From a virus (lineage: Duplodnaviria > Heunggongvirae > Uroviricota > Caudoviricetes): 15,276 nt of DNA. A program made the translations under genes and the position numbers. The notes under the pieces were generated by a model. It had not been told where the DNA came from. It worked only from the letters and a program-made list of their open reading frames with translations, and made no database searches. The stretch is from positions 1 through 15,276 of IMG/VR virus record IMGVR_UViG_2609459826_000005. The stretch is one strand, 5' to 3'. Of the stretch, positions 1-14,685 are shown one piece after another; position 1 is the stretch's first letter, and each line of letters begins with the position of its first letter.

Positions 1-357
1 CAGGTTAAACAGCAGTTGGCTGCGCTTGGCTATACCACCGTTCCTGACTTCATGATCGACGCCTACCTGTGCAAGCTGGCGAAGATAGAACCCTGCCTGA
101 TTGCCGCCGGTTACGACGATTGCGATCTGATGCTCATCCAAGTGTACGCAGTCACCTTGATGGCTCTGACGGCGTACACGCAGCGGATTAAGTCGCAGGG
201 TGCTCCGTCCGGTGCGTCCCGGTCGTTCGACTACAGCGACAGCGTGCTCAACATGCGTGACGCTCTGCTGGCGCTGGATACCTCCGGTTGCACGTCAGAG
301 CTGCCCATCGATGTCGGGCAGAAGGTTGGGATGTTCCTCGTTGTTGGGGGCTGCTGA
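1..357 (+). CDS. phage head-tail connector/adaptor protein (gp6-like), 5' partial
   Basis: Reading frame is open from base 1 (no stop upstream of the listed ORF at 16), ends TGA 355-357 overlapping the next start. Position immediately upstream of head-closure, neck and major tail genes. Family assignment is by synteny and general resemblance, not a recognised motif. Confidence 0.45.
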   Translation, partial: QVKQQLAALGYTTVPDFMIDAYLCKLAKIEPCLIAAGYDDCDLMLIQVYAVTLMALTAYTQRIKSQGAPSGASRSFDYSDSVLNMRDALLALDTSGCTSELPIDVGQKVGMFLVVGGC

Positions 358-530
358 TGACCTGGACACCCGTAAGCGTCCGGCTGCCGCGCTCATTCAC
401 TCGCATCTGGGTGCTGACCGACACCGGTCGGGAGACTACCGGCTACGTCAAATCGGATGGGGAGTGGTTCATTAACTGTGATCGCATCCGGGCTACTGGC
501 GCGGTGGTGCTGCGCTGGAGGGAGGACTGA
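357..530 (+). CDS. small hypothetical phage protein (57 aa), translationally coupled
   Basis: ATG at 357 overlaps upstream stop (TGATG) and its own stop overlaps the next ATG at 530 (TGATG). Coupling on both sides argues for a real small gene; function unknown. Confidence 0.4.
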   Translation: MTWTPVSVRLPRSFTRIWVLTDTGRETTGYVKSDGEWFINCDRIRATGAVVLRWRED

Positions 531-886
531 TGTCGGCAACCGCGAATTGGAGTTACACCGCCAAAGCCACCATCTGGCGCAAGGGCGCAGGCGGCAGGGA
601 TGAGAACGGCGACCCCATAAACGGCTATGACGCGCCGGTAGTCATCATGGTCGATTATGAGGGCGGGCTGTCAAAGCGCATCGGCAACCTGGGCACTGAA
701 ATCGTAGTGAAAAATACCGTCTGGACGGAATACGCGCTGGCCGACGCCGGTGATTACCTGCTGATTGGTGAATCTACCGATGCCGATCCGGTTGCTGCTG
801 GCGCTGACGAGGTGCGGCAGGTTATCCGCTACGCCGATACGTTCGAGCGAGTGGCGGATGATTTCGCCATCCTGACGGGAGTGTAG
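530..886 (+). CDS. head-tail joining / head closure protein
   Basis: 118 aa ORF in the canonical position between connector and HK97 gp10-like gene; start coupled to upstream stop. Assignment by synteny and size. Confidence 0.5.
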   Translation: MSATANWSYTAKATIWRKGAGGRDENGDPINGYDAPVVIMVDYEGGLSKRIGNLGTEIVVKNTVWTEYALADAGDYLLIGESTDADPVAAGADEVRQVIRYADTFERVADDFAILTGV

Positions 887-888
887 CT

Positions 889-1257
889 ATGGGCATCAAA
901 GTTAAGGGCATCAGTCAGGCGCGTAAAAACCTCAATGCCCTAGTCGGCGACATCCAGGGCCGTAAGACCATCAGGGCCATGCAGTCGGCGCTGATTATCG
1001 GGGGCTCGCAGGCTGCGCTCTATACGCCGATCGACACGTCCACGCTGCTGAATAGTCAGTTTCGCGACATAACCGTGAACGGCAATCGCGTAACGGGCCG
1101 TGTGGGATACTCTGCTAATTACGCGGTGTATGTTCACGACCCGAACGTACCTCAGACCTTCCGACGAGCTACAGCACGGAAAGAATTCCTCACGAAAGGC
1201 TTTGAGGATACGCGAAGACAAATCGATGCGGTGATCGCCAAGGAGATGTCGCTATGA
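889..1257 (+). CDS. HK97 gp10-like tail completion (neck) protein
   Basis: 122 aa, GGGAG 8 nt upstream of ATG 889; size and position typical of the HK97 gp10 family; stop overlaps next start (ATGA at 1254-1257). Confidence 0.55.
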   Translation: MGIKVKGISQARKNLNALVGDIQGRKTIRAMQSALIIGGSQAALYTPIDTSTLLNSQFRDITVNGNRVTGRVGYSANYAVYVHDPNVPQTFRRATARKEFLTKGFEDTRRQIDAVIAKEMSL

Positions 1258-1637
1258 CGCCCATGATGCATGAGCGGGTGCGCAACATGTTCGGTGATGC
1301 TGGCCTCACGGCCGGGTTCACGGTGCAGAAGTTGATGTATGACGACCCGGAGGATCTGACGCAGGCCGTGATGGTGTTCAGGCCAAACGGTGGTACCGAC
1401 GTACGAAACGATCTTGGTTCTGAGCATTACGTCCTGGTCGATGTCATTGCTGCGAAGGACAGGCGCGGCGACGCCGCTAATGCTGTTCAGCGTATTGTCG
1501 ATTATGTTCAGGCAAACCCTATGGCTGATGAGTGCGTCGGCTATATCCAGAATATGGGCGCAATCCCCGCCCCGGTGTTAACAGAAGAGGGGCGAATGAC
1601 CTTCCGGCTCCAGTTCGCCTGCACCTACGGCGAATAG
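1254..1637 (+). CDS. tail terminator / tail tube-head joining protein (gpU analogue)
   Basis: 127 aa ORF directly upstream of the major tail protein gene, translationally coupled to the preceding gene; followed by an intrinsic terminator. Confidence 0.5.
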   Translation: MTPMMHERVRNMFGDAGLTAGFTVQKLMYDDPEDLTQAVMVFRPNGGTDVRNDLGSEHYVLVDVIAAKDRRGDAANAVQRIVDYVQANPMADECVGYIQNMGAIPAPVLTEEGRMTFRLQFACTYGE

Positions 1638-1653
1638 CCAACCCAACCAAATA

Positions 1654-1680
1654 GACCCGCTACGGCGGGGTTTTTTTTTT
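1654..1680 (+). terminator. rho-independent terminator (CCCGC-TACG-GCGGG stem-loop + T10)
   Basis: Perfect 5 bp GC stem 1656-1660/1665-1669 with tetraloop, followed by ten T at 1671-1680, 17 nt after the stop at 1637. Confidence 0.7.
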
Positions 1681-1700
1681 AGTCAAAGAGGAAGTTTCAC

Positions 1701-2444
1701 ATGGCTAATTGCCCTAGCTCTAACGAGCGCCTATTCGGTGGCGCGGTGGTGCTGGAAGTCGCCGACGGCTGCCCGGATGTCAAACCACTTGAATCAGAGT
1801 GGAAGGCGCTGGCGGCCGGTACGTCCAAAGGCTTCGACTTCAACCCGAACTCGGTAACCTCAGATGCTGATGACGGCGGCGGCTATGTCGAAACCATCAT
1901 CACCAACAGTGACTTCACCCTGAGCTTTGAAGGTGAGGTCCGCAAGAAGGATAAACTGGATCAGTACGGCGTCGGCAAGTTCATCAAGTATTTCGCTGAC
2001 GAGCTGAAAGCCAAACGCCAGCCCGGAATCTGGGTGCGAATGGACTACGGCCCGGTTGAATTCATCGGCTACATGAACATCAACGCGCTGAGTTCTGACG
2101 GCGGCACCAACGATATCGTCACGTTCTCTACCGAGTTCAAAGTGGGCGATGCCAGCACCATCGAAGTTAACGAAGTGACGGCAGTGGCGGTGACCGGCGT
2201 AACGGTGACCCCAGCTACCAGCACTGGCGCGGCAGGCGGTACCAGCACCTTTACGGTGAATATCGCCCCGACCGGCGCAACCAACAAAGACTTCACCGTA
2301 GCATCAACCGATCCAACCAAAGCCACTGCTACCGCCTCCGGTACCACCGTGACGGTGAACCGCGTCGCCGCCGGCAGCGCGCAGATCGTCATTAACACCG
2401 AAGACGGTAATTTTGTTGCAACCCATACCGTTACCGTCAGCTAA
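1701..2444 (+). CDS. major tail protein with C-terminal Ig-like (Big_2-type) domain
   Basis: 247 aa; AAAGAGGAAG RBS at 1685-1694. The C-terminal ~90 aa is Thr/Val/Ala-rich with alternating beta-strand pattern (VTGVTVTPATSTGAAGGTSTFTVNIAPTGATNKDFTVASTDPTKATATASGTTVTVNRVAAGSAQIVINT), typical of Ig-like domains appended to siphovirus major tail proteins (cf. lambda gpV C-terminus). Confidence 0.8.
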   Translation: MANCPSSNERLFGGAVVLEVADGCPDVKPLESEWKALAAGTSKGFDFNPNSVTSDADDGGGYVETIITNSDFTLSFEGEVRKKDKLDQYGVGKFIKYFADELKAKRQPGIWVRMDYGPVEFIGYMNINALSSDGGTNDIVTFSTEFKVGDASTIEVNEVTAVAVTGVTVTPATSTGAAGGTSTFTVNIAPTGATNKDFTVASTDPTKATATASGTTVTVNRVAAGSAQIVINTEDGNFVATHTVTVS

Positions 2445-2504
2445 CGGCCATTCCAAAGGGTGGCCGCGGCTGCCCTTGATAATGACCGTTAACCTGGGTG
2501 AAAC

Positions 2505-3179
2505 ATGACAGTAGTAGCCATGAAAGAAATTGGCGAGATCGCCATTAGTGACAGCCGGGAAGGTGGTAAGGACTACTTACTGCGGCCTTCCTTCTCAGCG
2601 ATGATGAAGGTTGGTGAACCGGATGAGATCGTGAAGATGTACGCACTAATTCACGGTAGCGAGGTGCAGCAATTGATAGCCTCTTGTACTGCTGGCTTCG
2701 ACTCAATTCCTGAATGGATGGCTCCATCCTTCAATGTTGCAGCTGACAATCTGCTATTCACGTCAATGCTGGTATTGCAGGCCTGCTGTGATGATGATCT
2801 CGATGAGATAATTGGCGAGTGGGCTGATGAAGGCGGCAGAATCTCCTATCAGCCCGGCATGATGGCAAAAGATTTAATCATCATTTTCGCCCGCGAGCTG
2901 ATGCAGCACGGCATCGTAGGTAAAGCCAGTGTGCGACGCCTGCAGCGGCATGAGTCAGGCGAAACGACGAACGAGTTTAAGGCCTTCGACTACATCAGCG
3001 CGGCGCGTAGCCACTTCGGCATGAGCCGGGAAGAGGCTGCGGCGCTGACCATGACCGAGTTTCAGCTGATGCTGGCGCAGAAATACCCTGATCAGAAGGG
3101 TTTCACGCGGGATGAGTACGACGCGGTTGCGGATGACTTCCTGGCGAAACAGGCTGCGAGAAGGGCTAAGCAGAAGTAG
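2505..3179 (+). CDS. putative tail assembly chaperone (position-based)
   Basis: 224 aa acidic protein in the slot between major tail and tape measure genes, where gpG/GT-type chaperones are encoded. No slippery frameshift site recognised; the call is synteny-based only. Confidence 0.4.
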   Translation: MTVVAMKEIGEIAISDSREGGKDYLLRPSFSAMMKVGEPDEIVKMYALIHGSEVQQLIASCTAGFDSIPEWMAPSFNVAADNLLFTSMLVLQACCDDDLDEIIGEWADEGGRISYQPGMMAKDLIIIFARELMQHGIVGKASVRRLQRHESGETTNEFKAFDYISAARSHFGMSREEAAALTMTEFQLMLAQKYPDQKGFTRDEYDAVADDFLAKQAARRAKQK

Positions 3180-3195
3180 CCCACCCAAATAATCA

Positions 3196-3223
3196 AGCCT
3201 CGGCATTGTCCGGGGCTTTTTTG
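3196..3223 (+). terminator. rho-independent terminator after the chaperone gene
   Basis: AGCCTCGG / CCGGGGCT 8 bp stem (one G-U wobble) with CATTGT loop followed by TTTTTTGT, 17 nt after stop at 3179. Confidence 0.6.
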
Positions 3224-3261
3224 TACCCGCAGTAAATCAACCGCGCTTCACACGCGCATTG

Positions 3262-3267
3262 TATAAT
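3262..3267 (+). promoter_or_regulatory. consensus -10 hexamer TATAAT upstream of the KilA-N gene (candidate moron promoter)
   Basis: Exact TATAAT at 3262-3267 immediately preceded by TG, located between a terminator and the KilA-N start. No good -35 found at 17 bp spacing. Confidence 0.35.
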
Positions 3268-3341
3268 CCTAGAGCCTACAGTAAGCGAGCCTGAGAGTTG
3301 CCGTTATAGGTGGCGACCTCTCTAGGAGGCGGCTTCTCTGT

Positions 3342-3905
3342 GTGACAGGCTCTGCTTTCTATAGGCAAATCGCAATGAAATATCCAACCGTATCAGTAAG
3401 CGGCGTTTCCGTTCGCGTTGATGACGAAGGGCGCTATAACCTTAATGATCTTCATGCAGCCGCAGTGGCAAACGGAGAGGCAACAGAACAGCAGCGCCCA
3501 AGTCAGTTTTTGCGTAGTGCTCAAGTTAAGCGCTTCATAAAAGCACTAAAAGCCAAAGTGCAAAAAAGCACTCTGGAACAAATTCAACCACTTAATGTTA
3601 TTAAAGGTGGGGATGAACCAGGCGTTTGGGGTGTTGAACTGTTGGCGATCCGTTATGCCGCATGGATTAAGCCGGAATTTGAGATTGAAGTATATGAGGT
3701 GTTCCGAACGGTGGTTCGCCTCGGCATTAGTGCCATGTCTCGCCTGAACAAAATCGACCACATCATCAACACCGAATCGAAAGAGATCAGCAAGTGCGCC
3801 AGCCAGATGGCCCGGTGGGGTGTCGGTGGTCGTAAGCAGCTATTGCACGCAGCAAGAGATCGCGTCGCCGATGAAGTTCAGATGTACCTGCCAGGCATCG
3901 CGTGA
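3342..3905 (+). CDS. KilA-N domain protein
   Basis: GTG start 3342 with AGGAGG at 3325-3330 (alternative ATG at 3375). N-terminal region contains the hallmark KilA-N pattern (VSVRVDDEGRYNLNDLHAAA...RPSQFLR...IKGG...GVWGVELLAIRYAAWIKPEFEIEV). Confidence 0.8.
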   Translation: MTGSAFYRQIAMKYPTVSVSGVSVRVDDEGRYNLNDLHAAAVANGEATEQQRPSQFLRSAQVKRFIKALKAKVQKSTLEQIQPLNVIKGGDEPGVWGVELLAIRYAAWIKPEFEIEVYEVFRTVVRLGISAMSRLNKIDHIINTESKEISKCASQMARWGVGGRKQLLHAARDRVADEVQMYLPGIA

Positions 3906-3912
3906 AGGTGGC

Positions 3913-3935
3913 AAGGCCCACTCAGGTGGGCTTTA
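3913..3935 (+). terminator. hairpin terminator after KilA-N gene (weak T tract)
   Basis: AGGCCCAC-TCAG-GTGGGCTT hairpin (GCCCAC/GTGGGC perfect stem) followed by TTTAG; 8 nt after stop at 3905. Confidence 0.45.
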
Positions 3936-3960
3936 GATCTCTTATCTCGGGGAGAGGGCG

Positions 3961-4155
3961 GTGAAACCTAAGCAAACATTAACCATTAACAATTTGATAC
4001 CATTCCCAAGCGAAGCGCCTAGAGAAGAGACCATAGAGTGTAATGATGTTTTTCTTGATAATTCAATGCTAGAGGAAAAAATTTCTACTCGAATAGGTTT
4101 TAGTAGATTGATTTTTGTTAATGAAATCAACTCGATCAATTCCATCTCGGAGTGA
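3961..4155 (+). CDS. small hypothetical protein (64 aa) in AT-rich moron segment
   Basis: GTG start with GGGGAGAGGG just upstream; ends 37 nt before the peptidase gene. A 73 aa ORF on the opposite strand (3942-4163) covers the same DNA, so strand and reality are uncertain. Confidence 0.3.
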   Translation: MKPKQTLTINNLIPFPSEAPREETIECNDVFLDNSMLEEKISTRIGFSRLIFVNEINSINSISE

Positions 4156-4192
4156 ATTATCATATGCGCATACCTTTCAATAGGATGCGAAA

Positions 4193-4771
4193 ATGATTAA
4201 CGAATATGATTTCGTGACAGCGGCAGGTCATATAGCTAAACATGAAGCCGGTCACTGGCTTGCGGCGTTTAAATTAGGCTGGAACCCAAGAGGTATAGGC
4301 TTGAGAGTGCCGCCTCATGCTAAAGATCACATGGGTTATTCAGAAACAAGTCACAAAGTCGATTTAAGCAGCATTGAGGATGTCCGGGATTACGCAAGAG
4401 GCAGGGTAAAAATTCTCTACAGTGGCGTATATGCAGAGCACTTTGACGGAAAAGACTTTGATCACGAATCCATAATGCGTGATATGAAGCGTGGCGGCGG
4501 TGCTTATTCTGATTTCTGGAAAGCTGAAGAAATCTACTTCTTTTACTACAACTGCCTCGACACAAAGGGAGAGTGGGATGAAGAGTTTCAGCCTGTTATT
4601 TGCGACGTTCAGCTCATGATCGAAATGCATTATGACTTCATCACCTTGGTAGCCAAATTTGTTATGGCGAGGGCAAATTTTGTCGGTCAACGCATAGAGA
4701 TTTCATCCACCGACCTGATCAGGCTGTTCGAAAATAGCGCCATTAATCTACCGGATCACGACCCTGCCTAA
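4193..4771 (+). CDS. standalone FtsH-like (peptidase M41-type) zinc metallopeptidase domain protein
   Basis: 192 aa; HEAGH at residues 17-21 (AGHIAKHEAGHWLAAFKLGWNPRGIGLRV), followed by a PRG motif and LYSG...AE / GGGAYSD segments. This parallels the FtsH protease domain (HEAGHA...IIPRGRALG...LYGGRLAEE...GASND) as recalled from E. coli FtsH. No AAA+ ATPase or transmembrane part. AGGA 7 nt upstream of ATG. Confidence 0.65.
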   Translation: MINEYDFVTAAGHIAKHEAGHWLAAFKLGWNPRGIGLRVPPHAKDHMGYSETSHKVDLSSIEDVRDYARGRVKILYSGVYAEHFDGKDFDHESIMRDMKRGGGAYSDFWKAEEIYFFYYNCLDTKGEWDEEFQPVICDVQLMIEMHYDFITLVAKFVMARANFVGQRIEISSTDLIRLFENSAINLPDHDPA

Positions 4772-4883
4772 CTGCGGGTTTTTCCGGCGCTAGCCTCTTG
4801 AGATCAATAAATCAGCGTTTGCCGTTGCGCCTGTGCTATTCCTGGGTAGGATGTTTCCACTTTTACCAATGGGGAATAGGGAT

Positions 4884-5270
4884 ATGAAGCGTTTACTGAT
4901 CATGGCTATTGCTGGGCTATCACTAACCGGCTGCGGCAAACCTGCACCGACAAGAGATGAGGCCTTTCAAATGGCTAAGCAGGAAATGTCGATGGCTCTT
5001 TGTGGCGATAGGAGTGCAAGCTGTTTTATTGCTGAAGGAGGAAGCTCTAAAGTATCAGAGAAGAAAAATGACAATACCTATAACGCCTCAGCTACATTTA
5101 ACAGCCTAAAAGGGAAGGGCAAGGATTTGGAATATAGCGGCGGGGGCGTTTTTTTCGAAATAGATGACGAAACAAGGGCTGTATATGTCAAATCCATCTC
5201 AGCATGGTCTGAGGATGGAAAAAAGAGCATTGAGCTTTGTGGTTCGAACTATAAATTCTGTACTAAATGA
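4884..5270 (+). CDS. small lipoprotein (128 aa), candidate superinfection-exclusion moron
   Basis: Likely start ATG 4884 (in-frame upstream GTG/ATG at 4833/4851/4869 lack a signal peptide). N-terminus MKRLLIMAIAGLSLTGC has a basic n-region, hydrophobic core and lipobox L-T-G-C. Followed by a strong terminator. Confidence 0.7.
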   Translation: MKRLLIMAIAGLSLTGCGKPAPTRDEAFQMAKQEMSMALCGDRSASCFIAEGGSSKVSEKKNDNTYNASATFNSLKGKGKDLEYSGGGVFFEIDDETRAVYVKSISAWSEDGKKSIELCGSNYKFCTK

Positions 5271-5286
5271 AGCCCTAATAAACAGC

Positions 5287-5309
5287 AACCCGCCGAGGCG
5301 GGTTTTTTT
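5287..5309 (+). terminator. rho-independent terminator (CCCGC-CGAG-GCGGG + T7) abutting the tape measure gene
   Basis: 5 bp GC stem 5289-5293/5298-5302, tetraloop, seven T at 5303-5309. Confidence 0.7.
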
Positions 5310-5324
5310 ATGCCCGGAGAGAAC

Positions 5325-7727
5325 ATGGCCAGCGAGGAGCAGGTAGGTAATATTGTCTATCAGGTGCAGATGGATGTTGCCAATCTTATTGAGGCGCAGC
5401 GTAAAGTAAACGAACGCCTTGAGAAGATGAATAGTGGAGTATCAAAAGCTGCCAGCAAGTTTGATGAGCTTCAGACCAGTATAAGCAGAGTAGCTGGCGC
5501 GATCGCTGCTTCAATTGTCGTTGAATGGGGGAAGGCATTTCTTGTAGCCGCTGACAATATGAGCCAACTTAACGCTCGAATTGAAAGGCTAACTGGTAGT
5601 GCTTCTGTCGCATCTCAGACCATGCAAAGTCTGATGAATATAAGCTCAACAACAGGAGGATCTCTCCAGGATACAGCCAAGCTGTGGGAAACGTTAAGCA
5701 CTGCGTTGCGGAGCACTGGTGCCACTAATGGCCAAATATTGCAGCTTACCGATACCCTTCAAAAAATTGGTCGAATTGGAGGCACATCTGCCGAGGAAAT
5801 GGCTAATGCGCTGCGCCAATTCGGACAGTCTATTTCATCCGGCGTTGTTAGAGCAGAAGAATTTAACTCTATTCTTGAGCAAATGCCTGAGTTGGCAAGG
5901 CAGATGGCGGCAGGGCTTGGAATTGGTATTGGTGAATTGCGTCAGTTGATGCTGGATGGGAAACTTTCTGCTCAAGATGCACTCAATGCAATTCAGAAGC
6001 AAACCAGCATCGTGAATGCAGAGTTCGCAAAATTGCCCCGCACCTTATCTCAGGCCAATGCTGCTCTTACCAATTCGTTTCTGTCAATGGTTGACTCAAT
6101 TAACCAGACTACAGGCGCGAGCAGAACCATGGTGGCTGTAATTGACTCCATCACCACAGCCATAGACAGGCTGACTGGGAAAACAGCTTCAGCAGCAGCT
6201 CAAATTTCCGATCTCAATAGCACAGCAGAGATGTTCGAGCGAAGGGCGAGGACATGGTCTTGGCTGGGCCTGGATGGTTGGGAGGCTCAAAGCAAGGCGC
6301 TTGCAGGGCTAAGCAACAAAGCTGCAGCTCTCGTTGGGGATATTTCTGCCGTGACCCAAGCCTCTCAAGAGGCCTCTAACACAAAGCCAATAAACATTAA
6401 AACGACCGGAGACGATGCGGCTACATCGAAGCTGATAAAAAACTCAGAGCGCCGCTTAGCGCTCGCCAAGCTGGAAGGTGAAGCCAGAGCCAGACTGCAG
6501 GCCCAATATGATGCAGCAGACGCTGGCATCACCGATCAGAAACGCATCAAAGCTCTTCAGGATGAATACGCAGAAACCTATCGGGTTACTGAGGCGCGGA
6601 AAGAGAGCAACAAAGAGGGCAAGACCTCCGCCTCGCAGGCTGAATCCATTGCTCAGAAACTGGCGAGCCTCAAACAGCAATCCGAACTCGCTGCAGATTC
6701 GACCAGTGAGTTGAGTCGAGAGCAGGCCATGCTAAGGGCCGAGCAATCCCTCGGCAGCGCCGCCACCCAGTCCCAGATTAAAGAGGCAAGGGAATACGCA
6801 GCCAGGACGTGGGACGTTGCTAATGCCCTGAAAATGCGTCAGCAGGCGGAGCAGGCCTCCCGGTTTATAAATCAGGAAGTGTCAGCTGCGAAGGTTCAAC
6901 GCGATCCTTACACAGGTGAAGCGCAGGACCCAGCCGCGCAGGTCAACGAGGAAGAGCAGCGTAAACTCGAGGCCCTGGCTAAATACCAGGAACTGGGCGT
7001 AATCAACGCGCAGCAGTTCGAAGACGGAAAGACGGCCATCGCAAGGCAGGCATCGAACGATCGCATCAGTATTGCCCAGCAGGAGGCTAAGCGTCAGGTT
7101 GACGTGATGAACATGCTGCTTGGCGGGATCGGTGATGGTTTCTCAGGCCTGGCTGAAATCGTGTCTAAAAGCGCTGGCGAAAGCAATGCCGCTTACAAGA
7201 CACTGTTCGCTATCAGTAAAGCCTTTGCGGTTGCTCAGTCCACTCTGAACCTTCAGCTTGCACTCTCAAACGCCATGGCCTCGGGTCCATTCCCCTGGAA
7301 CATGGCAGCAATGGCGCAGGTTGCTGCAGCTGGCGGCCAGGTGATCTCATCTATCGGCGCAATGTCATATGGTGGCGGGCGCGAACACGGCGGCCCGGTA
7401 TCTGCCAGCTCCATGTACCGTGTGGGCGAGGGCGGTAAACCTGAGATTTTCAAAGCCAGCAATGGCAGCCAGTACATGATCCCCGGCGATAACGGTCGCG
7501 TCATCAGTAACCGGGATATTGGCGGGGGTGGCGGGGCGTTCAATTACAGCCCGGTCATTCAGGTCAACGGTGATCCGACAGAGCAGACGCTTGCCATGCT
7601 TGAAGCGGCGGTTAAGCGCGGTGCGCAGCAAGGCTATGCCATGGCCGTCAGCGATGTCGCCAGCGGCAAAGGTAAGCTTTCCAACGCGCTGACCAACAAC
7701 TTCAACACCAGTCAACGCCTCACATAA
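5325..7727 (+). CDS. tail tape measure protein
   Basis: Long ORF (800 aa from ATG 5325; in-frame ATG also at 5310 but it abuts the terminator T-run, whereas CCCGGAG at 5313-5319 is a well-spaced RBS for 5325). Ala/Gln/Glu-rich coiled-coil-like middle, Gly-rich C-terminus, and position between chaperone and minor tail genes. Confidence 0.9.
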   Translation: MASEEQVGNIVYQVQMDVANLIEAQRKVNERLEKMNSGVSKAASKFDELQTSISRVAGAIAASIVVEWGKAFLVAADNMSQLNARIERLTGSASVASQTMQSLMNISSTTGGSLQDTAKLWETLSTALRSTGATNGQILQLTDTLQKIGRIGGTSAEEMANALRQFGQSISSGVVRAEEFNSILEQMPELARQMAAGLGIGIGELRQLMLDGKLSAQDALNAIQKQTSIVNAEFAKLPRTLSQANAALTNSFLSMVDSINQTTGASRTMVAVIDSITTAIDRLTGKTASAAAQISDLNSTAEMFERRARTWSWLGLDGWEAQSKALAGLSNKAAALVGDISAVTQASQEASNTKPINIKTTGDDAATSKLIKNSERRLALAKLEGEARARLQAQYDAADAGITDQKRIKALQDEYAETYRVTEARKESNKEGKTSASQAESIAQKLASLKQQSELAADSTSELSREQAMLRAEQSLGSAATQSQIKEAREYAARTWDVANALKMRQQAEQASRFINQEVSAAKVQRDPYTGEAQDPAAQVNEEEQRKLEALAKYQELGVINAQQFEDGKTAIARQASNDRISIAQQEAKRQVDVMNMLLGGIGDGFSGLAEIVSKSAGESNAAYKTLFAISKAFAVAQSTLNLQLALSNAMASGPFPWNMAAMAQVAAAGGQVISSIGAMSYGGGREHGGPVSASSMYRVGEGGKPEIFKASNGSQYMIPGDNGRVISNRDIGGGGGAFNYSPVIQVNGDPTEQTLAMLEAAVKRGAQQGYAMAVSDVASGKGKLSNALTNNFNTSQRLT

Positions 7728-7736
7728 GGAGTTCCC

Positions 7737-8207
7737 ATGGGGATCAGCAGCACCATTGATTTCCCGCACCAGTACCTACCAATGCCCCAGCGTTCCGGGC
7801 ATGGATTCACTCCCGTAAGCCCCCTCCAGCGTTCCATCATGACATCCGGCCGCACGCGCCAGCGTCGCAAATACACCTCGGTTCCGACTGAGGCGGGGGT
7901 TTCGTGGGTGTTTAATGATGCACAGGCGCAGCTGTTTGAGGTGTGGTTCAGGGATGTGATCACTGATGGCGCAGCGTGGTTCAACATGCGCATGCGCACG
8001 CCAATGGGCGTTGGTGACTACGTCTGCCGGTTCAAGGATATCTACGACGGGCCGGTGCTGTTCGGGTTAGGGTTCTGGAAATTCACGGCAACTCTGGAAC
8101 TGTGGGAACGTCCTATTCTGCCGCCTGGCTGGGGTAATTTCCCTGAGTTCATCGTGGGGCAGAGCATTATCGATTACGCGCTCAACAAGGAGTGGCCTGA
8201 AGCATGA
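7737..8207 (+). CDS. minor tail protein (distal tail/tip assembly)
   Basis: 156 aa; AAGGAG at 7725-7730; first gene after tape measure; stop overlaps next start. Confidence 0.6.
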   Translation: MGISSTIDFPHQYLPMPQRSGHGFTPVSPLQRSIMTSGRTRQRRKYTSVPTEAGVSWVFNDAQAQLFEVWFRDVITDGAAWFNMRMRTPMGVGDYVCRFKDIYDGPVLFGLGFWKFTATLELWERPILPPGWGNFPEFIVGQSIIDYALNKEWPEA

Positions 8208-8692
8208 CCAGTCCAACCCTGAACAGGCTTTACGCCAGCGGCGGCAGCGAGGCGCTACTGAATACGTTGCAGATTACCGTCGGTGGGCAGGATTACTGGC
8301 TGGTCGAGAACTTCGAAGATATCACCGCTGTTACAGAGGCGGGGGCGACAGTGACATTCCAGGCAGCTGCAATGGCCGTCGCGCTGCCAGCCAGGAACAA
8401 AGACGGTACGCAGGATCTGCAGTTCGCCATCAGCAACATTGACGGCATCGTTTCCACTGCGATACGCAACGCCCTGGCTAACCTGAACAACGGCGCGCTG
8501 GTAATGCGGCAGTACATATCGACCGACCTTAGCTACCCGGCGGCACCACCTATCGTTCTGCAGATTAAGGACGGGTACTGGAAGGCCACAGAGGTGCAAA
8601 TTACTGCCGGATTCCTGAATATCCTGAAAACCGCGTGGCCGCGATACCGATACACGCTTCCTGTGTTCCCGGGACTCCGCTACCTACAGTAG
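8204..8692 (+). CDS. minor tail protein
   Basis: 162 aa; ATG overlaps upstream stop (ATGA); AAGGAG 9 nt upstream; syntenic with lambda L-position genes though not recognisably lambda L. Confidence 0.6.
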   Translation: MTSPTLNRLYASGGSEALLNTLQITVGGQDYWLVENFEDITAVTEAGATVTFQAAAMAVALPARNKDGTQDLQFAISNIDGIVSTAIRNALANLNNGALVMRQYISTDLSYPAAPPIVLQIKDGYWKATEVQITAGFLNILKTAWPRYRYTLPVFPGLRYLQ

Positions 8693-8701
8693 GAAATCAC
8701 C

Positions 8702-9082
8702 ATGTTCAATCCAGATAAATACCGTTCTGTCGAGTGGCAGAAGGGCGGGCGCGCTTACCCCGCGCTTGACTGCTTTGGCATCGTCAACGAAATCAGGCGC
8801 GATCTGGGTCTGGATCCGTGGCCGGATTTCGCCGGAGTCACGAAGGATGATAACGGCCTAGATCGGGAAGCGCGCGGGCTGATTGCTGGCCTGACTCGAT
8901 GTGAACCGACCCCGGGCGCAGGTATCGCCTGTTATTCCGGCTCTGTTGTTACACACGTTGCCATCGTTGTCGAGATTGACGGCCAACTGCGCGCTGCGGA
9001 GTGCAATCCCCGCACTAACGTAACCTTTCTGCCGCTGGCGCGGTTTGCGCGCCGCTTTGTTCGCGTGGAGTATTACCAGTGA
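8702..9082 (+). CDS. NlpC/P60-family tail protein (gpK-like)
   Basis: 126 aa with putative catalytic Cys in ALDCFGIV and downstream His in VVTHVAIVVE, the Cys-His arrangement of NlpC/P60 peptidases; position equivalent to lambda K. Confidence 0.65.
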   Translation: MFNPDKYRSVEWQKGGRAYPALDCFGIVNEIRRDLGLDPWPDFAGVTKDDNGLDREARGLIAGLTRCEPTPGAGIACYSGSVVTHVAIVVEIDGQLRAAECNPRTNVTFLPLARFARRFVRVEYYQ

Positions 9083-12000
9083 CGATCCGTATCTATCCCT
9101 CCCGGTTGCCGGGCGAACCGTTGGAAACGCATCAACATGAAACGATGACCCTTAGCGCCTGGTTTGCGCAGAACGTGAAGGACTGGACGCCGGATCAGCA
9201 GCATCCGGTTGCGGTTGAAATCGACGGTGTCCCCGTCCCGCCGGCAGAGTGGACACTGCGCGTTATCAAGCGAGAAACAGACGTCAGGTTGTATCCGGTG
9301 CCATACGGTACCGGCGCAGAAATCGCTATCTGGGTTGCCGTCAGCGTAGCTGTCGCCTCTGCTGCGTACAGCATCTACATGATGAGTACAATGTCACAGG
9401 CGGGTGGCGGCGGTGCCCAGGCGGCCAGCGGAGACCAGATTGACCTCAACCCGGCCAAAGCGAACGCTGCGAAACTTGGTGATCCCATCCGGGAAATCTT
9501 CGGCAAATATCGGGTCTGGCCTGATTACGTTGTGCAGCCGGTAAGCCGGTTCGTCAACGAGACCAGCATGGAAACCAGCATGTTCCTGTGCGTGGGCGTC
9601 GGTGACATGGTGATTAACCAGTCCGATATCCGGATTGGCAATACGCCGATCTCCGCTTTCGGTACCGACGTGCGTTACACCATCTACCCACCTGGCACTA
9701 ATGTATCCGGCGACACGCGTACCGAAAACTGGTTCAACTCACCAGAGGTCGGGAATACCGGTTCCGGTACCGCCGGGCTGGACCTTGGCTCAAGCGGTCC
9801 GGAGACGGTCAGTATTATCGCTGACGCTCTGGTAGTGTCCGGAAACTCCATCACGCTCGTTGACGTATCGGCGTCAGGCGGCGATGAGGAGATCCCGCCG
9901 TCGTGGACTGTAGGAACGGTGATCACCGTGCTGGCGCCAAACTCTTATACGGTGGTGTCATCCGGCGGTTACAGCGTCATTTATGGCGGGATAGAGGAAC
10001 TTGCACCTTATGTCGGCATGCCGGTGACGCTGAACTATAACGGCAACGACTACGACCTGGTGATCGCCAGCTATGCCCCGGGCGTTCCGGCGGTACCCGG
10101 GGTTGGCGGCAGTGCCGCGACCTTAACCGCCAGCGCCGCGCCGACGACTTATGATTTCAGTACCGCACCTGTGACGTTCAGCATCAGCTGGCAGGGTACG
10201 ACCTACCCGGTCTCGCTGGTTACCAATTACGTCACCATGTCGGGTCTGGTTTCCTCGATCACCTCGCAGCTCTCAGGCTCCGGTCTGATTGCCAGAGATA
10301 ACAGTGGGCGTCTCGAAATCGGTGAGGCCAGCAGCCCGTTCGCTGGCGGTTCCATAACCAACAGCCCTTTACCCGCTGCTGTGTTCGGCGATGCGCCAGT
10401 CAATAAGGCGGGCGTGAAATCAACGGGCGGCACGGCGGAAGTCAGGGCGCACATTACCCTGGCTTACAACAGCGCCACCGGCACGCCGTTTACCGGGTTA
10501 CCGGAAGGCATTCAGCGGTTCTCGCTGGGGTTGGCTGGCAATCAGTTCCGGATCACCGATGTGGACAGCCAGACGGTCACGATTGAGCGGTTAACTGTGA
10601 CAACAGGCTCTGGCGGTGAAACCATCACGACGCCGGATCCATCGTGGCCTGGCTTCACTGAGCGCATGCTGCTGGATGCGACTGTAACGGGTGTCAGTGA
10701 CGATTATGAGTGGGTCGGCCCGTTCCTGGCCTGCCCGGACGGGGAAACGCTGGACGCATTCGAGGTGAACATCAACTTCCAGAGCGGCCTGGTGCGTTAT
10801 ACCGACCAGGGGAATAAACGCTCCATGCCGGTACGCCTGGTGATCCAGTATCGCAAGGTCGGCACCACCGCCTGGCAGCAGCAGTCTCCGTTCTATTCAC
10901 GCAGCACTGAAAACCAGATCGGGTTTACGCATCGCTACAGTGTGTCGCCGGGCCAATATGAGATCCGGATGCGCCGCACTGAACCGGTTAAGGGGGGCAG
11001 TACCCGCGACCAGGTATTCTGGCAGGCGCTGCGCTCACGACTCAGCAAGCGCCCCACGAAGTACAATGGTGTCACCACCATGGCGCTGACCGTGCGCACA
11101 GGGAATCGCCTGGCGGCCATGTCCGATCGCCGGATAAGCGTCACGCCAACCCGGATTTACAGTGGCGGCAGAACGGCGCGGAGCATTAGCGGGGCGCTTT
11201 ACCACGTCCTAGGGTCGCTGGGGTTCACGGCCAGTCAGATAGATACGGCGGCAATTGACGCGCTGGAACAAACCTACTGGACGCCACGCGGTGAGAAGTT
11301 CGACTGGGCGAGCGGGGAGAGCAAGTCAGCGCTTGAGGTATTGCAGAAAATCACCAACGCAGGGATGGGGTATTTTCTGCTGTCTGATGGGCTGGCGTCT
11401 GCCGGCAGGGAAGGCATTAAACCCTGGGTAGGCATGATCACCCCTCAGGAAACCACCGAGGAGCTGCAGACCGCGTTTAAAGCCCCGTCACAGGACGATT
11501 ACGACGGTGTGGACGTGACGTATATCAACGGCACCACCTGGGCAGAGGAGACCGTGCAGTGTCGCCTGCCTGGCAATCCTACGCCGTTGAAAATCGAGAG
11601 CTATACGCTGGATGGTGTTCTGGATGAGGACCGGGCCTACCGCATCGGCATGCGCCGGTTGCTGGGCTACCAGCTGCAGCGCCTGCAGCACACCACCTAC
11701 ACCGAGATGGATGCGCTCTGCTATGAGTTCATGGATCGCATAGTGCTGGCCGATGACATCCCGGGCAGCCAGACTCTTAGTTGCCTGATTACCGATATGA
11801 CGTATGACAGCAGCAAAATTACCATGACGCTAAGTGAGCCGCCGGACTGGTCGTTCCAGAACCCGCGCGTGATTATCCGCCATCAGGATGGCAGGGCATC
11901 AGCCATGGTGGTGCCGACACGCATTGACGACTTCACCATCTCGGTGCCGTACAGCGCCGCGCTGGAGCCCGAACTGTGGGCAATGAACGACGCGTACATT

Positions 12001-12165
12001 GAGCCGCCGCGACTGCTGTTCTGCTCGTCTGTGCGGGTGCCGTATGACGCCCTGGTAGGCGAAATATCACCGGGAAACGACGGTATCAGTCAGGTAACAG
12101 CAATTCAGTATCACCCCGGAAAATATGCCTACGATGACGCCACTTACCCCGGCGACGTTACTTAA
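9079..12165 (+). CDS. central tail fibre / tail tip protein with gpI-like N-terminal domain and gpJ-like core
   Basis: 1028 aa; GTG start overlaps upstream stop (GTGA). N-terminal ~200 aa resembles lambda gpI organisation (short soluble domain, hydrophobic stretch IAIWVAVSVAVASAAYSIYMM, then a PAKANAAKLG...IFGKYRV segment). Further in, QYEIRMRRTEPVKGGSTRDQVFWQALRS matches the lambda J NIRMRR...TLW motif as recalled. Confidence 0.75.
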   Translation: MTIRIYPSRLPGEPLETHQHETMTLSAWFAQNVKDWTPDQQHPVAVEIDGVPVPPAEWTLRVIKRETDVRLYPVPYGTGAEIAIWVAVSVAVASAAYSIYMMSTMSQAGGGGAQAASGDQIDLNPAKANAAKLGDPIREIFGKYRVWPDYVVQPVSRFVNETSMETSMFLCVGVGDMVINQSDIRIGNTPISAFGTDVRYTIYPPGTNVSGDTRTENWFNSPEVGNTGSGTAGLDLGSSGPETVSIIADALVVSGNSITLVDVSASGGDEEIPPSWTVGTVITVLAPNSYTVVSSGGYSVIYGGIEELAPYVGMPVTLNYNGNDYDLVIASYAPGVPAVPGVGGSAATLTASAAPTTYDFSTAPVTFSISWQGTTYPVSLVTNYVTMSGLVSSITSQLSGSGLIARDNSGRLEIGEASSPFAGGSITNSPLPAAVFGDAPVNKAGVKSTGGTAEVRAHITLAYNSATGTPFTGLPEGIQRFSLGLAGNQFRITDVDSQTVTIERLTVTTGSGGETITTPDPSWPGFTERMLLDATVTGVSDDYEWVGPFLACPDGETLDAFEVNINFQSGLVRYTDQGNKRSMPVRLVIQYRKVGTTAWQQQSPFYSRSTENQIGFTHRYSVSPGQYEIRMRRTEPVKGGSTRDQVFWQALRSRLSKRPTKYNGVTTMALTVRTGNRLAAMSDRRISVTPTRIYSGGRTARSISGALYHVLGSLGFTASQIDTAAIDALEQTYWTPRGEKFDWASGESKSALEVLQKITNAGMGYFLLSDGLASAGREGIKPWVGMITPQETTEELQTAFKAPSQDDYDGVDVTYINGTTWAEETVQCRLPGNPTPLKIESYTLDGVLDEDRAYRIGMRRLLGYQLQRLQHTTYTEMDALCYEFMDRIVLADDIPGSQTLSCLITDMTYDSSKITMTLSEPPDWSFQNPRVIIRHQDGRASAMVVPTRIDDFTISVPYSAALEPELWAMNDAYIEPPRLLFCSSVRVPYDALVGEISPGNDGISQVTAIQYHPGKYAYDDATYPGDVT

Positions 12166-12184
12166 CAGCATTTAAAAATTACCT

Positions 12185-12206
12185 GACCCGCTTCGGCGGG
12201 TTTTTT
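12185..12206 (+). terminator. rho-independent terminator (CCCGC-TTCG-GCGGG + T6) abutting the fibre gene
   Basis: 5 bp GC stem 12187-12191/12196-12200, tetraloop, six T at 12201-12206. Confidence 0.7.
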
Positions 12207-12221
12207 ATGCCCGGAGCGAGC

Positions 12222-13889
12222 ATGACCACATACCGCACGAATAATCCATTTGGGTCAATGGATCCGAAAGACCTTTTCGATAACTCCCAGAATCTTGACT
12301 ATGCCCTAAACGATATAACAAAATCCTTGTGGACAGACCGCTTAGGAAGAGTAAGGAAAAGTTATTGGGGAATGGAGCAGGCTTTTTCTGCTCAACTTAT
12401 CAGCCAGCAGCAAAGATTTAATTATTTCATTCAGAATTCAGGGTATAAAGTAATTGGTGAATATACCCAAGGTCCTCTGACTGTTACTGATTATAATCAA
12501 CTGATTCGCTATCAGAGTGAATTTTATAAATTAAATTCTTCTACTTCCATTCCATTTACCACTACGGGCAATGACTCCACGTCATGGTCAAACGATTCTT
12601 CACATTTTGTCAGTGTAGGGGATGCGGCCATTCGCCAAGAATTATCTGGTGCTGGCGGCTCAGGTTTGATTGGAGATTTACTCAAGCCTATCACGTGGGA
12701 TGGGTTTTCTGGAGGAGCGGCCTGGGACGGTGTAACCAATGATAATATTCCCTACCAGGCGGCAGCTCAATATGGTCGAAAATTTTTAATGCCATATGGC
12801 GTTGGAAATATAACAGAGTATTCAGTAGGTCTTTTTGCGCCGAATTTCTCTGTTCTTGGTGAGGCAGAGCAATTAGGCTCATTGCAATATCCTGTTGATG
12901 ATTTCCGTCCATCAAGGACGGATACAAAATACTCAAAGTATCACGAAACGGATCCAGCATCTAATCGATGGGATTCCTGTTCTATACATACAATTGTTAA
13001 ATGTCCTCAGGACGGTGCTAATCCAAAAGGAAATGCGGCAGCTGTAACTGGATATGCCAGGGCTATCAATAGCGAGGGTGGTGATCATGTTGGCGTACAT
13101 GGTAGAGCAGAAGGTGATACCAGTTACGACTTCGGTACTGGGATGGGGTTGTGGGGTGGATGGCTGTCAGCCGTTTACAGACCTAATACAGGCTCAGCTG
13201 GGAAGCCAATAAAGTCTATTATTGGTTGTGAGATTGACGTGCAAAATGATGGGCCACACGCACAAAACCCCAATCCGGATGGTGTTGGTGAGCTGCGTGG
13301 TCTCGCGGTAGGGAATACTGGCACCGGCCATCTTAATCAAGGCGTTGATGTATTCGCTAACAATAGCGGTGCGCGTGGAAGGTGGTGGATGGGCGTTCAC
13401 GTACGTGCTAATTCCATTGTAGGAAGACATCTGGTATCAACAGAGGGGGAAGTTGGTAATGCAATGGTGATTGCTGGAGCGGCATCGTCAGGGACGCGTT
13501 ACGGCGGATTAAAATTTAGTAAATATCCCTACACAGCGGTAGGACAAGGAGGTCATCTTTCTTATGGAATTGATTTCAGGGAGGCAACAATTCGCTTACA
13601 AAACGCGATTGTAATGGGGCCTCAGCACCGGATTACATGGGAGCCTGACACTGCAAAGGGTGTTGCGGTAGAGACAGAGGGAGGGGATGTAATTACTTTC
13701 CGGGGATATAACATAGCCATAAATAACTCCAAAGTTTTGGGGACTAGGCAAACTGGTATTTTTAATATGTCGGGGACGGCAGATGGAACCTCATACAATA
13801 CAGAAACCGTCACACTTGTAAATCTTGCCAGATACCTCAAGAAAGTAACTGATGCATTAATATTTCATGGCCTTATTGGCCCAACTTGA
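12222..13889 (+). CDS. tail fibre / tailspike protein (putative receptor-binding protein, possible depolymerase)
   Basis: 555 aa from ATG 12222 (in-frame ATG at 12207 abuts the terminator; CCCGGAG RBS serves 12222). Last large gene of the tail cluster; visibly lower GC than neighbours; Gly/Asn/Thr-rich C-terminal half suggestive of a beta-rich binding or enzymatic domain. Confidence 0.65.
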   Translation: MTTYRTNNPFGSMDPKDLFDNSQNLDYALNDITKSLWTDRLGRVRKSYWGMEQAFSAQLISQQQRFNYFIQNSGYKVIGEYTQGPLTVTDYNQLIRYQSEFYKLNSSTSIPFTTTGNDSTSWSNDSSHFVSVGDAAIRQELSGAGGSGLIGDLLKPITWDGFSGGAAWDGVTNDNIPYQAAAQYGRKFLMPYGVGNITEYSVGLFAPNFSVLGEAEQLGSLQYPVDDFRPSRTDTKYSKYHETDPASNRWDSCSIHTIVKCPQDGANPKGNAAAVTGYARAINSEGGDHVGVHGRAEGDTSYDFGTGMGLWGGWLSAVYRPNTGSAGKPIKSIIGCEIDVQNDGPHAQNPNPDGVGELRGLAVGNTGTGHLNQGVDVFANNSGARGRWWMGVHVRANSIVGRHLVSTEGEVGNAMVIAGAASSGTRYGGLKFSKYPYTAVGQGGHLSYGIDFREATIRLQNAIVMGPQHRITWEPDTAKGVAVETEGGDVITFRGYNIAINNSKVLGTRQTGIFNMSGTADGTSYNTETVTLVNLARYLKKVTDALIFHGLIGPT

Positions 13890-13915
13890 TTTAATAAATA
13901 TTCTGAGGATAATAA

Positions 13916-14083
13916 ATGGACAGCCAAGTAGTACAAAATATCATGCAATTTATGCTGCGTGTTAATCTTTCCGGACAGGAGGTCCCGGCGTTTAATGTTG
14001 CAATGAATGCATTGCAGGAAGAGTTGATCAAAAGTGAAAAAAACCATGAAAGGGAGGTTGAATAATGGCTTTGAAAACAAATG
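13916..14083 (+). CDS. small hypothetical protein (55 aa)
   Basis: ATG 13916 with GAGGA 6 nt upstream, in an AT-rich stretch right after the fibre gene; overlaps the next ORF by 19 nt. Below the 60 aa cut-off of the supplied ORF track; found by manual translation. Confidence 0.3.
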
Positions 14084-14310: not shown

Positions 14311-14342
14311 GCTCTCGCGCAGATCTCTCTCCGATTGCACAT

Positions 14343-14609: not shown

Positions 14610-14665
14610 CTTCTGTAATCGGCATTGATAGGCGTCGCCTCATTGATCTGCACCCCTTTCAAAAC

Positions 14666-14685
14666 TACTGTATATAAAAACAGTA
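14666..14685 (+). promoter_or_regulatory. LexA (SOS) box TACTGTATATAAAAACAGTA
   Basis: CTGT-N8-ACAG with AT-rich spacer, 17/20 match to the E. coli consensus TACTGTATATATATACAGTA; sits directly upstream of AAGGAG (14687-14692) and the GTG start at 14702. Confidence 0.7.

Follow-up and report, generated by a model that had tools for sequence, protein, structure and literature searches.

A conserved, covarying RNA stem-loop between the major tail protein and DUF6246 genes of temperate siphoviruses resembles the RNase III processing sites of T7 and T3

The DNA analyzed here (hereafter the window) is a stretch of 15,276 nucleotides, positions 1 to 15,276 of the IMG/VR virus record IMGVR_UViG_2609459826_000005, and it represents the tail module of a temperate siphovirus. 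Between the gene of its major tail (tube) protein (MTP) and a downstream gene of the DUF6246 family lies a real, conserved and covarying RNA element, a stem-loop of three tiers that starts at the MTP stop codon. The Shine-Dalgarno and start codon region of DUF6246 (2496 to 2507) begins 5 nt past the base of the element. An earlier note, made from the sequence alone, had placed a different hairpin at the same site. Within MTP, residues 163–244 match the Pfam family Big_2, and the exact DUF6246 protein is known from NCBI assembly GCA_033747095.1. Among cultured relatives, Enterobacter phage CobraSix is the nearest, with 79% nucleotide identity to the window across these genes. This lambdoid phage has cI/cII-like genes, a Q-like antiterminator and a lysis cassette followed by the packaging, head, and tail genes, all in one direction, so that a single long late transcript is expected.

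The minimum-energy fold of the locus, computed in a context of 81–91 nt, has a free energy of −31.5 kcal/mol (z = −3.3), which was equaled by none of 200 shuffled sequences. Its pair probabilities are mostly 0.85–0.998 and drop to 0.64–0.83 for the two outermost pairs only. A lower stem of 6 pairs, a middle stem of 4 and an upper hairpin of 9 add up to 19 pairs over 50 nt, with 1x1 and 3x3 interruptions between the tiers (Table 1). The first interruption consists of C2448 and A2485, which are unpaired in the window. The second holds the conserved CA/GA internal loop together with C2453 and U2480, a position at which many relatives form an A-U pair. In the 81-nt fold, nucleotides 2497–2501 are additionally paired with 2431–2435. 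A covariance model that was built from prophage elements only, with no T7-like sequence (model R1), matched the window over 2438–2495 with 71.1 bits.

Table 1. Coordinates of the RNA element and of neighboring features; positions refer to the window unless another contig is named
Feature	Position	Strand	Basis or remark
Whole RNA element, 50 nt three-tier stem-loop	2442–2491	+	Minimum-energy fold, RNAalifold consensus, covariation, covariance model R1
Lower stem UAACGG/CCGUUA	2442–2447 / 2486–2491	+	Pair probabilities 0.64–0.998
Middle stem CAUU/AAUG	2449–2452 / 2481–2484	+	Pair probabilities 0.85–0.99
Internal loop, 5' side CA	2454–2455	+	2x2 loop; partner GA at 2478–2479
Upper hairpin AAGGGUGGC-CGCG-GCUGCCCUU, 9 bp including U-G and G-U	2456–2477	+	Pair probabilities 0.92–0.998
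Predicted RNase III target region	2478–2481	+	3' side of internal loop; positional analogy to T7 sites, CCUU-UAU^GAU
Hairpin of the earlier note, CGGCCAUUC-CAAA-GGGUGGCCG	2445–2466	+	Excludes the conserved fold; lineage-specific alternative pairing
Tail terminator gene	1254–1637		
Canonical hairpin + T10 terminator-like site	1656–1679	+	Terminator scan; upstream of MTP; equivalents in relatives
MTP gene, Ig-like C-terminal domain	1701–2444	+	phrog_853 'major tail protein', E = 4e-102
MTP stop codon TAA	2442–2444	+	First three bases of the RNA element
Shine-Dalgarno-like GGGUGA	2496–2501	+	Precedes DUF6246 AUG
DUF6246 AUG	2505	+	
DUF6246 gene, 224 amino acids	2505–3179	+	PF19759, E = 2.7e-66; phrog_791
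Three-gene insert including KilA-N protein	3342–5270		Between DUF6246 and tape measure
Tape measure gene	5310–7727		Followed by tail-tip genes
Other terminator-like sites	3195–3225, 4763–4783, 5287–5309, 12185–12206	+	GC hairpin + T-run
Extra copies of the element in relatives	L183 1837–1873; L143 131–167; L085 341–378 and 716–773		L085 on the reverse strand

Relatives were recruited through the DUF6246 protein and not through the RNA, which provided 76 IMG/VR loci, about 140 more by way of two divergent queries, 12 cultured phages, and three bacterial genomes, the only loci that the bacterial genome collection yielded. From these, 113 distinct homologous intergenic sequences were each folded singly, and 49 diverse sequences were aligned with MAFFT for the analysis of covariation. 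The three-tier fold was obtained in essentially all of the 113 distinct sequences, with a median of 18 pairs (range 14–22), and RNAalifold independently returned the same three-tier structure from the 49 diverse sequences, with 14 of its 18 pairs compensated. When the structure was scored as stated above, 91.0% of the cells were paired, as compared with 75% in shuffles (0 of 500), and 15 of 20 pairs were altered on both sides, which gave a covariation score of 0.512 versus 0.045–0.14 when the partners were slid by 1–3 columns. The lower and middle stems by themselves had 9 of 11 pairs compensated and scored 0.473, where the controls reached 0.117 at most. Specifically, the lower stem (alignment columns 5–10/50–55) showed the exchanges AU/CG, CG/UA/UG, and GC/AU/CG/UA, a C-G pair of the middle stem was replaced by U-A in 7 of the 49 sequences, and the upper hairpin carried compensatory changes of the types GC/CG, AU/GC, and UG/CG. 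The internal loop was conserved in sequence: C17 and A42 (alignment A2, positions of the window row) were invariant, A18 nearly so, and G41 highly conserved.

G-U pairs on the + strand were frequent (UG at columns 24–36 in 26 sequences, GU at columns 25–35 in 19, and GU at columns 10–50 in 10), which identifies the + strand RNA as the folded molecule. A minus-strand RNA, or a double-stranded DNA palindrome bound by a dimeric protein, was rejected on these grounds, since the same pairs would become A-C mismatches, and also on the grounds that the stem sequences vary freely while the pairing is kept.

Hundreds of viral contigs carry the element between MTP and DUF6246, as do cultured phages of Enterobacter, Hafnia, Morganella, Providencia, Erwinia, and Klebsiella. 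It is 89–91% identical to the window, as opposed to 66–84% for the flanking 120 nt of coding sequence. Within the clade of the window the 60-nt spacer between the two genes is near-invariant (TAACGGNCATTCCAAAGGG...CTGCCCTTGATAATGANCGTTA), and the exact pattern with its flanks occurs in at least 119 IMG/VR viral contigs. Among distant relatives, whose DUF6246 proteins share 43–52% amino acid identity with that of the window (phages of Morganella, Providencia, Erwinia, and Klebsiella, and a Rouxiella-like contig), the stem sequences differ and the architecture is the same, with a lower stem that begins on the stop codon or close to it, a 2x2 CA/GA loop, a GC-rich upper stem, and a loop of 3–5 nt. 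The upper stems of these distant copies read AAGGG.../...CCCUU, or GGGGC.../...GCCCC in Erwinia.

The element is also retained where unrelated sequence replaces the last ~100 nt of MTP. In ten relatives (L011, L012, L015, L016, L023, L031, L045, L047, L048, and L052) the end of MTP is exchanged, relative to about 2340–2441 of the window, right up to the element. The element thereby also marks a mosaic recombination joint for the exchange of tail-tube C-termini and downstream genes.

Comparison with Rfam 15 assigned no family to the element: the sole match, to HCV_5BSL1 over 2453–2479, scored 15.5 bits against a gathering score of 44 (E = 4.5) and is at chance level. BLAST searches with the 65-nt element retrieved, beyond a few relatives, chance-level matches in Erwinia jumbo phages only. 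In those phages (pEa_SNUABM_*), up to five places per genome matched the upper-hairpin part of the query (CCAAAGGGTGGCCGCGGCTGCCCTT) with chance-level E-values, and they are possibly repeated terminator hairpins. Searchable literature on DUF6246, on RNase III processing in the late operons of prophages, and on hairpins that follow the major tail gene contained nothing relevant. With 113 distinct sequences and strong covariation, and without an Rfam match, the element is a candidate new RNA family.

The site after MTP is not the only one at which these phages carry this module. A search with model R1 returned one copy in the window (71 bits) and two in the complete CobraSix genome, one of which is the MTP copy. 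The second CobraSix (L267) copy, at 46801–46836 (29.6 bits, E = 9e-6), lies directly 3' of the stop codon of a Rha-family gene, which itself lies after the lysis cassette and before the terminase genes. A scan that combined sequence pattern and pairing detected equivalent copies in three more contigs at the same relative place, ~11–12 kb upstream of the MTP copy (Table 1). These extra copies directly follow stop codons in the stretch that separates the lysis cassette from the terminase genes, and they share the CAUUA-CA and GA-UAAUG sequences, while their upper stems are unrelated yet complementary. One of the two L085 copies is a terminator-like hybrid with a U6 tail (GGCUUUUUUAAUGG). The distance from the extra copy to the next start codon is ~90 nt in CobraSix and ~60 nt in L183. 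With copies at the lysis/terminase junction as well, the module is a general intercistronic signal of the late transcript and is not specific to the tail genes.

Intercistronic stem-loops of similar build are known from the podoviruses T7 and T3, in which they serve as RNase III processing sites. For T7 we used site positions and cut positions that we take to be those of Dunn & Studier 1983; the T7 records consulted do not list such sites, and the positions fall in the right intergenic spaces of the T7 record and at the same point of the shared motif. The T3 record NC_003298 annotates ten 'RNase III recognition sites', which fold like those of T7. The T7 sites consist of a lower stem, an internal loop with CUC opposite UAUGA, an upper stem AAGGnnnnn/nnnnnCCUU of 9–10 bp, and a loop. 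The base of the upper stem of our element, AAG/CUU, is the same as that of the T7/T3 sites.

We compared the two groups in both directions by means of model R1 and of a second covariance model built from seven T7 sites only (model R2). Among the matches of model R1 to both strands of T3, the annotated R4.7 site ranked first (full-length, 16.3 bits, E = 0.035) and R18.5 second. Against T7 the same model placed R0.3 first, and the R1, R4.7, and R18.5 sites were also within the ten best matches. Conversely, when model R2 was run on 63 kb made up of the window and the CobraSix genome, positions 2441–2494 of the window came first (20.5 bits, E = 0.007) and the two CobraSix copies next.

Several published traits of RNase III substrates are also seen in the element. 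Substrates of the E. coli enzyme typically span two helical turns (Pertzev & Nicholson 2006, PMC1540722), and the element forms an irregular helix of about this length. Internal loops or bulges can limit RNase III to a single phosphodiester, and the remaining 3' hairpin protects against 3'-5' exonucleases (PMC1540722); in the element the conserved CA/GA loop, extended by C2453/U2480 in the window, lies between the helices, where it may restrict cleavage in the same manner. The proximal box is described as GC, AU/UA, and AU followed by the pair adjacent to the scissile bond, at which R1.1 has a non-Watson-Crick U-C (PMC1540722). The corresponding series in the window is G2458-C2475, A2457-U2476, and A2456-U2477, then A2455 opposite G2478, with the strand orientation checked against T7 sequences only. 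In T7, cleavage at five sites of this kind divides the early RNA into mRNAs of one or two cistrons, and a single cut in R1.1 yields products of 47 and 13 nt (PMC4858673).

Together with the structure of the element, its conservation and covariation, and its several intercistronic copies, this resemblance suggests, as the best reading, that the element is an RNase III-type processing site with a single cut, after which the tail-tube message would retain a hairpin that protects its 3' end. We regard the case for this reading as evenly poised. By analogy with T7 R1.1, we infer a cut near 2480/2481. Over 2442–2491 the + strand late transcript folds into the conserved rod, which is about two helical turns long. 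Host RNase III would bind this rod, and the internal loop would limit the enzyme to one cut at the 3' side of the loop. The upstream message, ending with MTP, would keep the 2456–2477 hairpin as a 3' cap and would be shielded from 3'-5' exonucleases. The message of DUF6246 and the tape measure would gain a 5' monophosphate end 20–25 nt upstream of the start codon, with an unstructured ribosome-binding site, and would thus acquire its own stability and translation rate. The tail-tube message would then outlive the downstream message, and the ratio of tail tube to downstream products would depart from 1:1.

Several observations weigh against this reading. On the one hand, the similarity scores are modest: the cross-model matches are weak both ways (16–21 bits, E = 0.007–0.035, with rough calibration), and model R2 gives the canonical terminators of these phages 19–22 bits, as high as the element itself, which implies that the cross-hits rest largely on the AAGG/CCUU hairpin. 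On the other hand, the details of the structure depart from the T7/T3 sites and from RNase III rules at several points. The internal loop is 2x2 or 3x3 with CA/GA, whereas the T7/T3 loops have ~3 nt (CUC) opposite ~5 (UAUGA). The upper stem and loop provide 10–11 steps from the tetraloop, which is at the limit of the minimum helix of 11 bp between cut and tetraloop (PMC1540722). The distal box, optimally UA/UG in the minimal R1.1 substrate (PMC1540722), is represented in the window by G2463-C2470 and C2464-G2469. At this position the pairs are A-U and U-G in the copies from Morganella and Providencia, like T7 R0.3, and T7 R4.7 has C-G pairs, as does the window; since R4.7 is a natural site, the distal box appears to modulate reactivity and not to be a strict requirement. 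The invariant CA/GA and CAUU/AAUG sequences are unexplained by the known rules of RNase III and could indicate another reader. Finally, the copy of Klebsiella phage ST11-VIM1phi8.1 and one extra L085 copy resemble ordinary terminators.

The last of these points leads to the alternative that the element is passive, i.e., a nuclease-independent barrier to 3' exonucleases and/or a weak intrinsic terminator or pause hairpin that raises the tail-tube message without a specific endonuclease. The upper hairpin of 9 bp is indeed GC-rich and stable, copies do grade into canonical terminators (CCCUUGAUUUUGUUUA in Klebsiella ST11-VIM1phi8.1, as well as the U6-tailed L085 copy), and the T7-derived model fails to separate the element from terminators. 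However, the terminator scan of the window made no call at 2442–2491: the tail after the stem (UUGAUAAU) has 4 U in 8 with no more than 2 in a row, which falls short of a U-run of, e.g., at least 5 U in 8. Moreover, the Erwinia lineage (tail GAAAAUGA) keeps the structure with no U after the stem (CCCCGAAAAUG). By the missing U-run and the U-less Erwinia lineage an intrinsic terminator is ruled out; the element is not a terminator. The same genomes have clear T7–T10 terminators at other junctions. The hairpin with a T10 tract upstream of MTP, whose counterpart in relatives (AAGGUCGCC...GGCGGCCUUUUUU) likewise precedes MTP, indicates that, where these phages use a terminator, they do build it with a U-run. 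In all, 23 terminator-like sites were counted versus 14.9 ± 4.0 expected, and the canonical ones listed in Table 1 lie directly before start codons (MTP at 1701, the tape measure at 5310, and the open reading frame at 12207) or just after genes; terminators within a late operon imply either antitermination or a role as 3' stabilizers. A weak terminator would be overridden by a Q-type antiterminator such as that of CobraSix, and neither a barrier nor a terminator needs 11 covarying pairs in the lower and middle stems or an invariant internal loop. We consider a passive element of this kind unlikely.

A second alternative is translational control. The rod places the MTP stop codon beside the ribosome-binding site of DUF6246 and partly hides that site, and ribosomes that terminate on MTP would melt the lower stem, which would couple the translation of DUF6246 to that of MTP at a fixed low ratio. 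In agreement with this, every lineage has the stop codon inside the lower stem, on its 5' strand, and several lineages (the L313 type, UUAUGGAGGA, as well as L263, L257, and L075) have a 3' strand that extends into the Shine-Dalgarno sequence; the extended fold of the window engages the Shine-Dalgarno nucleotides at 2497–2501. That extension, however, is absent from the conserved structure, the Shine-Dalgarno sequence of the commonest lineage (CobraSix type) is outside the helix, and the extra copies have no close start codon to control. Translational control thus seems rather improbable as the main function, and it could coexist with processing.

Thirdly, a sequence-specific RNA-binding protein other than RNase III, encoded by the phage or by the host, might recognize CAUU(A)-CA / GA-(U)AAUG and regulate the fate of the late message. 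CA/GA and CAUU/AAUG are kept in primary sequence across copies with unrelated upper stems and across hosts from Enterobacter to Morganella, a conservation that is not demanded by the structure and not explained by RNase III rules. For this proposal there is no candidate protein and we found no precedent in the literature, and both the length of two turns and the AAG/CUU at the foot of the upper stem are traits of RNase III sites; such a protein is an improbable explanation. A broader version of the idea is that the CAUU(A)-CA...GA-(U)AAUG stem-loop represents an undescribed family of cis-regulatory RNAs in the late operons of temperate Enterobacterales siphoviruses, with 2–3 copies per genome, read by a dedicated factor instead of or besides RNase III, which we put forward as speculation that has the odds against it. 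If it were true, the dedicated factor could be a phage regulator of late-gene translation or processing, or a host RNA-binding protein, and the late transcript would be partitioned into separately controlled segments for lysis, for head to tail tube, and for the tail tip.

Three further candidates were rejected. A sigma-70 promoter with TTGATA as −35 or GATAAT as −10 would, by inspection, have poor partner hexamers and a spacing shifted by a 2-nt loop indel; the Erwinia lineage has CGAAAAT at this place, and the promoter scan made no call. Stop-codon readthrough, or bypass into DUF6246 of the kind known from T4 gene 60, was excluded by inspection, as an in-frame TAA follows after 15 codons, the frame is broken by a 10/12-nt loop indel, and the candidate landing codons lead to stops. 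An 8-codon upstream open reading frame runs from AUG 2482, which lies on the 3' side of the middle stem, to UGA 2506–2508, where it shares an AUGA overlap with the DUF6246 start. This arrangement is kept in the GATCGTTACCC lineage and lacks a Shine-Dalgarno sequence; in the CobraSix lineage a 1-nt indel puts it out of frame, and it was rejected as a functional small open reading frame and is probably incidental.

The hairpin proposed in the earlier note pairs CGGCCA (2445–2450) with TGGCCG (2461–2466). This complementarity is present and better than chance, although the interval given for it, 2446–2470, should begin one base earlier and end four bases earlier, and it is not the favored fold. 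The six pairs extend through U-G, U-G, and C-G to nine pairs around a CAAA loop (2445–2453/2458–2466), and the hairpin is stable when folded by itself (−14.4 kcal/mol, z = −3.7, equaled by 0 of 200 shuffles). In the equilibrium ensemble of its context, however, its pair probability is 0.0015–0.0017, and it is optimal only in nascent transcripts with a 3' end between 2466 and 2477. Folding of 2430–2510, which had been suggested as a check, does yield a stable structure, namely that of −31.5 kcal/mol, but this uses the mutually exclusive hairpin 2456–2477 on two further stems. Only 7 of the 113 distinct sequences can form the complementarity, a single one yielded the hairpin when folded singly, and the commonest lineage (CGGACA...CGGCGUG) is unable to form it. 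Its covariation did not exceed that of the controls, with 62% of cells paired and a score of 0.115 as compared with 0.169 and 0.108 in slid versions. Ensemble probability, lineage distribution, and covariation together rule it out as the conserved structure, and the notion that this hairpin is itself a functional attenuator or stability element is extremely improbable.

The observation that no U-run follows that hairpin was correct, as the downstream sequence is CGGCUGCCCUUGAUAAUG. The suggestion of a partial attenuator does not hold for the locus, because nearly every lineage lacks a U-run and the Erwinia lineage lacks any, canonical terminators occur elsewhere, and the lower stem is under selection. 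The general idea of an RNA element after MTP that decouples its expression from that of the next gene through RNA stability or processing is retained; it had been attached to the wrong hairpin, and the outcome proposed here is the same, whereas the structure and the mechanism differ.

Late operons of lambdoid phages are usually seen as one antiterminated transcript, in which stoichiometries are ascribed mainly to the strength of translation initiation. If the processing reading is correct, T7-style message processing would extend to temperate siphoviruses of Enterobacter, Escherichia, Klebsiella, Erwinia, Morganella, and related hosts. The element lies directly after the gene of the most abundant tail protein and again at the boundary between lysis and packaging, and it offers a testable handle on how the ratio of the tail tube to the downstream tail gene products is set.

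The gene downstream of the element had been referred to as a chaperone in the earlier note, and its position does fit that of a tail assembly chaperone. DUF6246 is present in 333 phage records and has MTP and the tape measure gene as its immediate neighbors in CobraSix, Hafnia phage Pocitis76, Morganella phage IME1369_01, and Erwinia phage EhrS_49, and a homologue was labeled tail assembly chaperone by one depositor. A G/GT-type frameshift would be a further mark of such a chaperone; in Pseudomonas phages the match covers two coding sequences, and in the window the gene is a single open reading frame. The match of Phage_TAC_6 to DUF6246 (E = 0.12) was below the cut-off, and an AlphaFold model of medium confidence (predicted local distance difference test score 72) had no PDB match with E below 1. 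By position only, the assignment of DUF6246 as a tail assembly chaperone is plausible but unproven.

The region downstream of DUF6246 is variable among these phages. In the window the three-gene insert encodes a KilA-N domain protein and two proteins of unknown function (phrog_36675 and phrog_20460), and it is flanked by the terminators at 3195 and 5287. CobraSix, the Hafnia and Morganella phages, and Erwinia EhrS_49 have no cargo at the DUF6246/tape measure junction, and different cargo (Arc repressors, an antirepressor, a DNA-binding protein) is found at the same junction in Midgardsormr38, Klebsiella ST11-VIM1phi8.1, RAH1, and the Providencia phage. From this gene content, the junction appears to be a hotspot of moron insertion. 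A region at 3149–3219 weakly matched the Salmonella small RNA family isrJ (RF01393; 25 bits where the gathering score is 37, E = 0.068); the terminator that follows DUF6246 lies at the same place, and the match is probably just its hairpin. In the virulent relatives Citrobacter K1M, Salmonella BS5, and IME207 (L264, L265, and L266), several small genes on the reverse strand (DUF551 and a superinfection immunity gene) separate the major tail gene from DUF6246, and a good promoter-like TGTCAA...TATAAT stands ahead of DUF6246 in place of the RNA element.

Four kinds of known elements invite comparison. Intrinsic terminators share with the element a GC-rich hairpin flanked 5' by A-rich and 3' by U-containing sequence, and a few copies in relatives grade into them; unlike terminators, the element has no U-run, and it has a covarying lower helix and an invariant internal loop. 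In the operons pufBA-pufLMX and papBA and in the REP sequences of malEFG, intercistronic hairpins act as stabilizers where subunits are needed in unequal amounts. These hairpins and the element are both placed just 3' of the gene of the most abundant subunit, with a difference in stability between segments of the message (proposed in our case), but they are not known to share its two-tier architecture around an internal loop or its conserved sequence. At lambda sib/tI, a terminator-like hairpin turns into an RNase III substrate only once read-through supplies the 3' strand of the lower stem. The same read-through logic would apply to the element, which likewise belongs to lambdoid phages under antitermination. 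Cleavage at sib destabilizes the upstream int message, whereas here a single-cut geometry like that of T7 would be expected to stabilize the upstream message.

The fourth kind, the RNase III processing signals of T7 and T3 (R0.3, R0.5, R1, R1.1, R1.3, R4.7, R18.5, and others), is the closest. These sites and the element are intercistronic and often start at the stop codon of the upstream gene, they occur in several copies within long polycistronic phage transcripts, and their rod measures about two helical turns. In each, a lower stem of 5–10 bp is followed by an internal loop, an upper stem of 9–11 bp with AAGG/CCUU at its base, and a loop of 3–5 nt, and the upper stem of T7 R0.3 (AAGGGUAUC/GGUGCCCUU) is identical to that of the element in the Morganella phage. 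The conserved CAUU/AAUG sequence of the lower part is a feature of our element, unlike T7/T3. The carriers also differ, as the element is found in temperate lambdoid siphoviruses transcribed by the host RNA polymerase and the T7/T3 sites in T7-like podoviruses. The closest known kind of element is the T7/T3 RNase III processing signal, and our element is probably a member of this kind in temperate siphoviruses.

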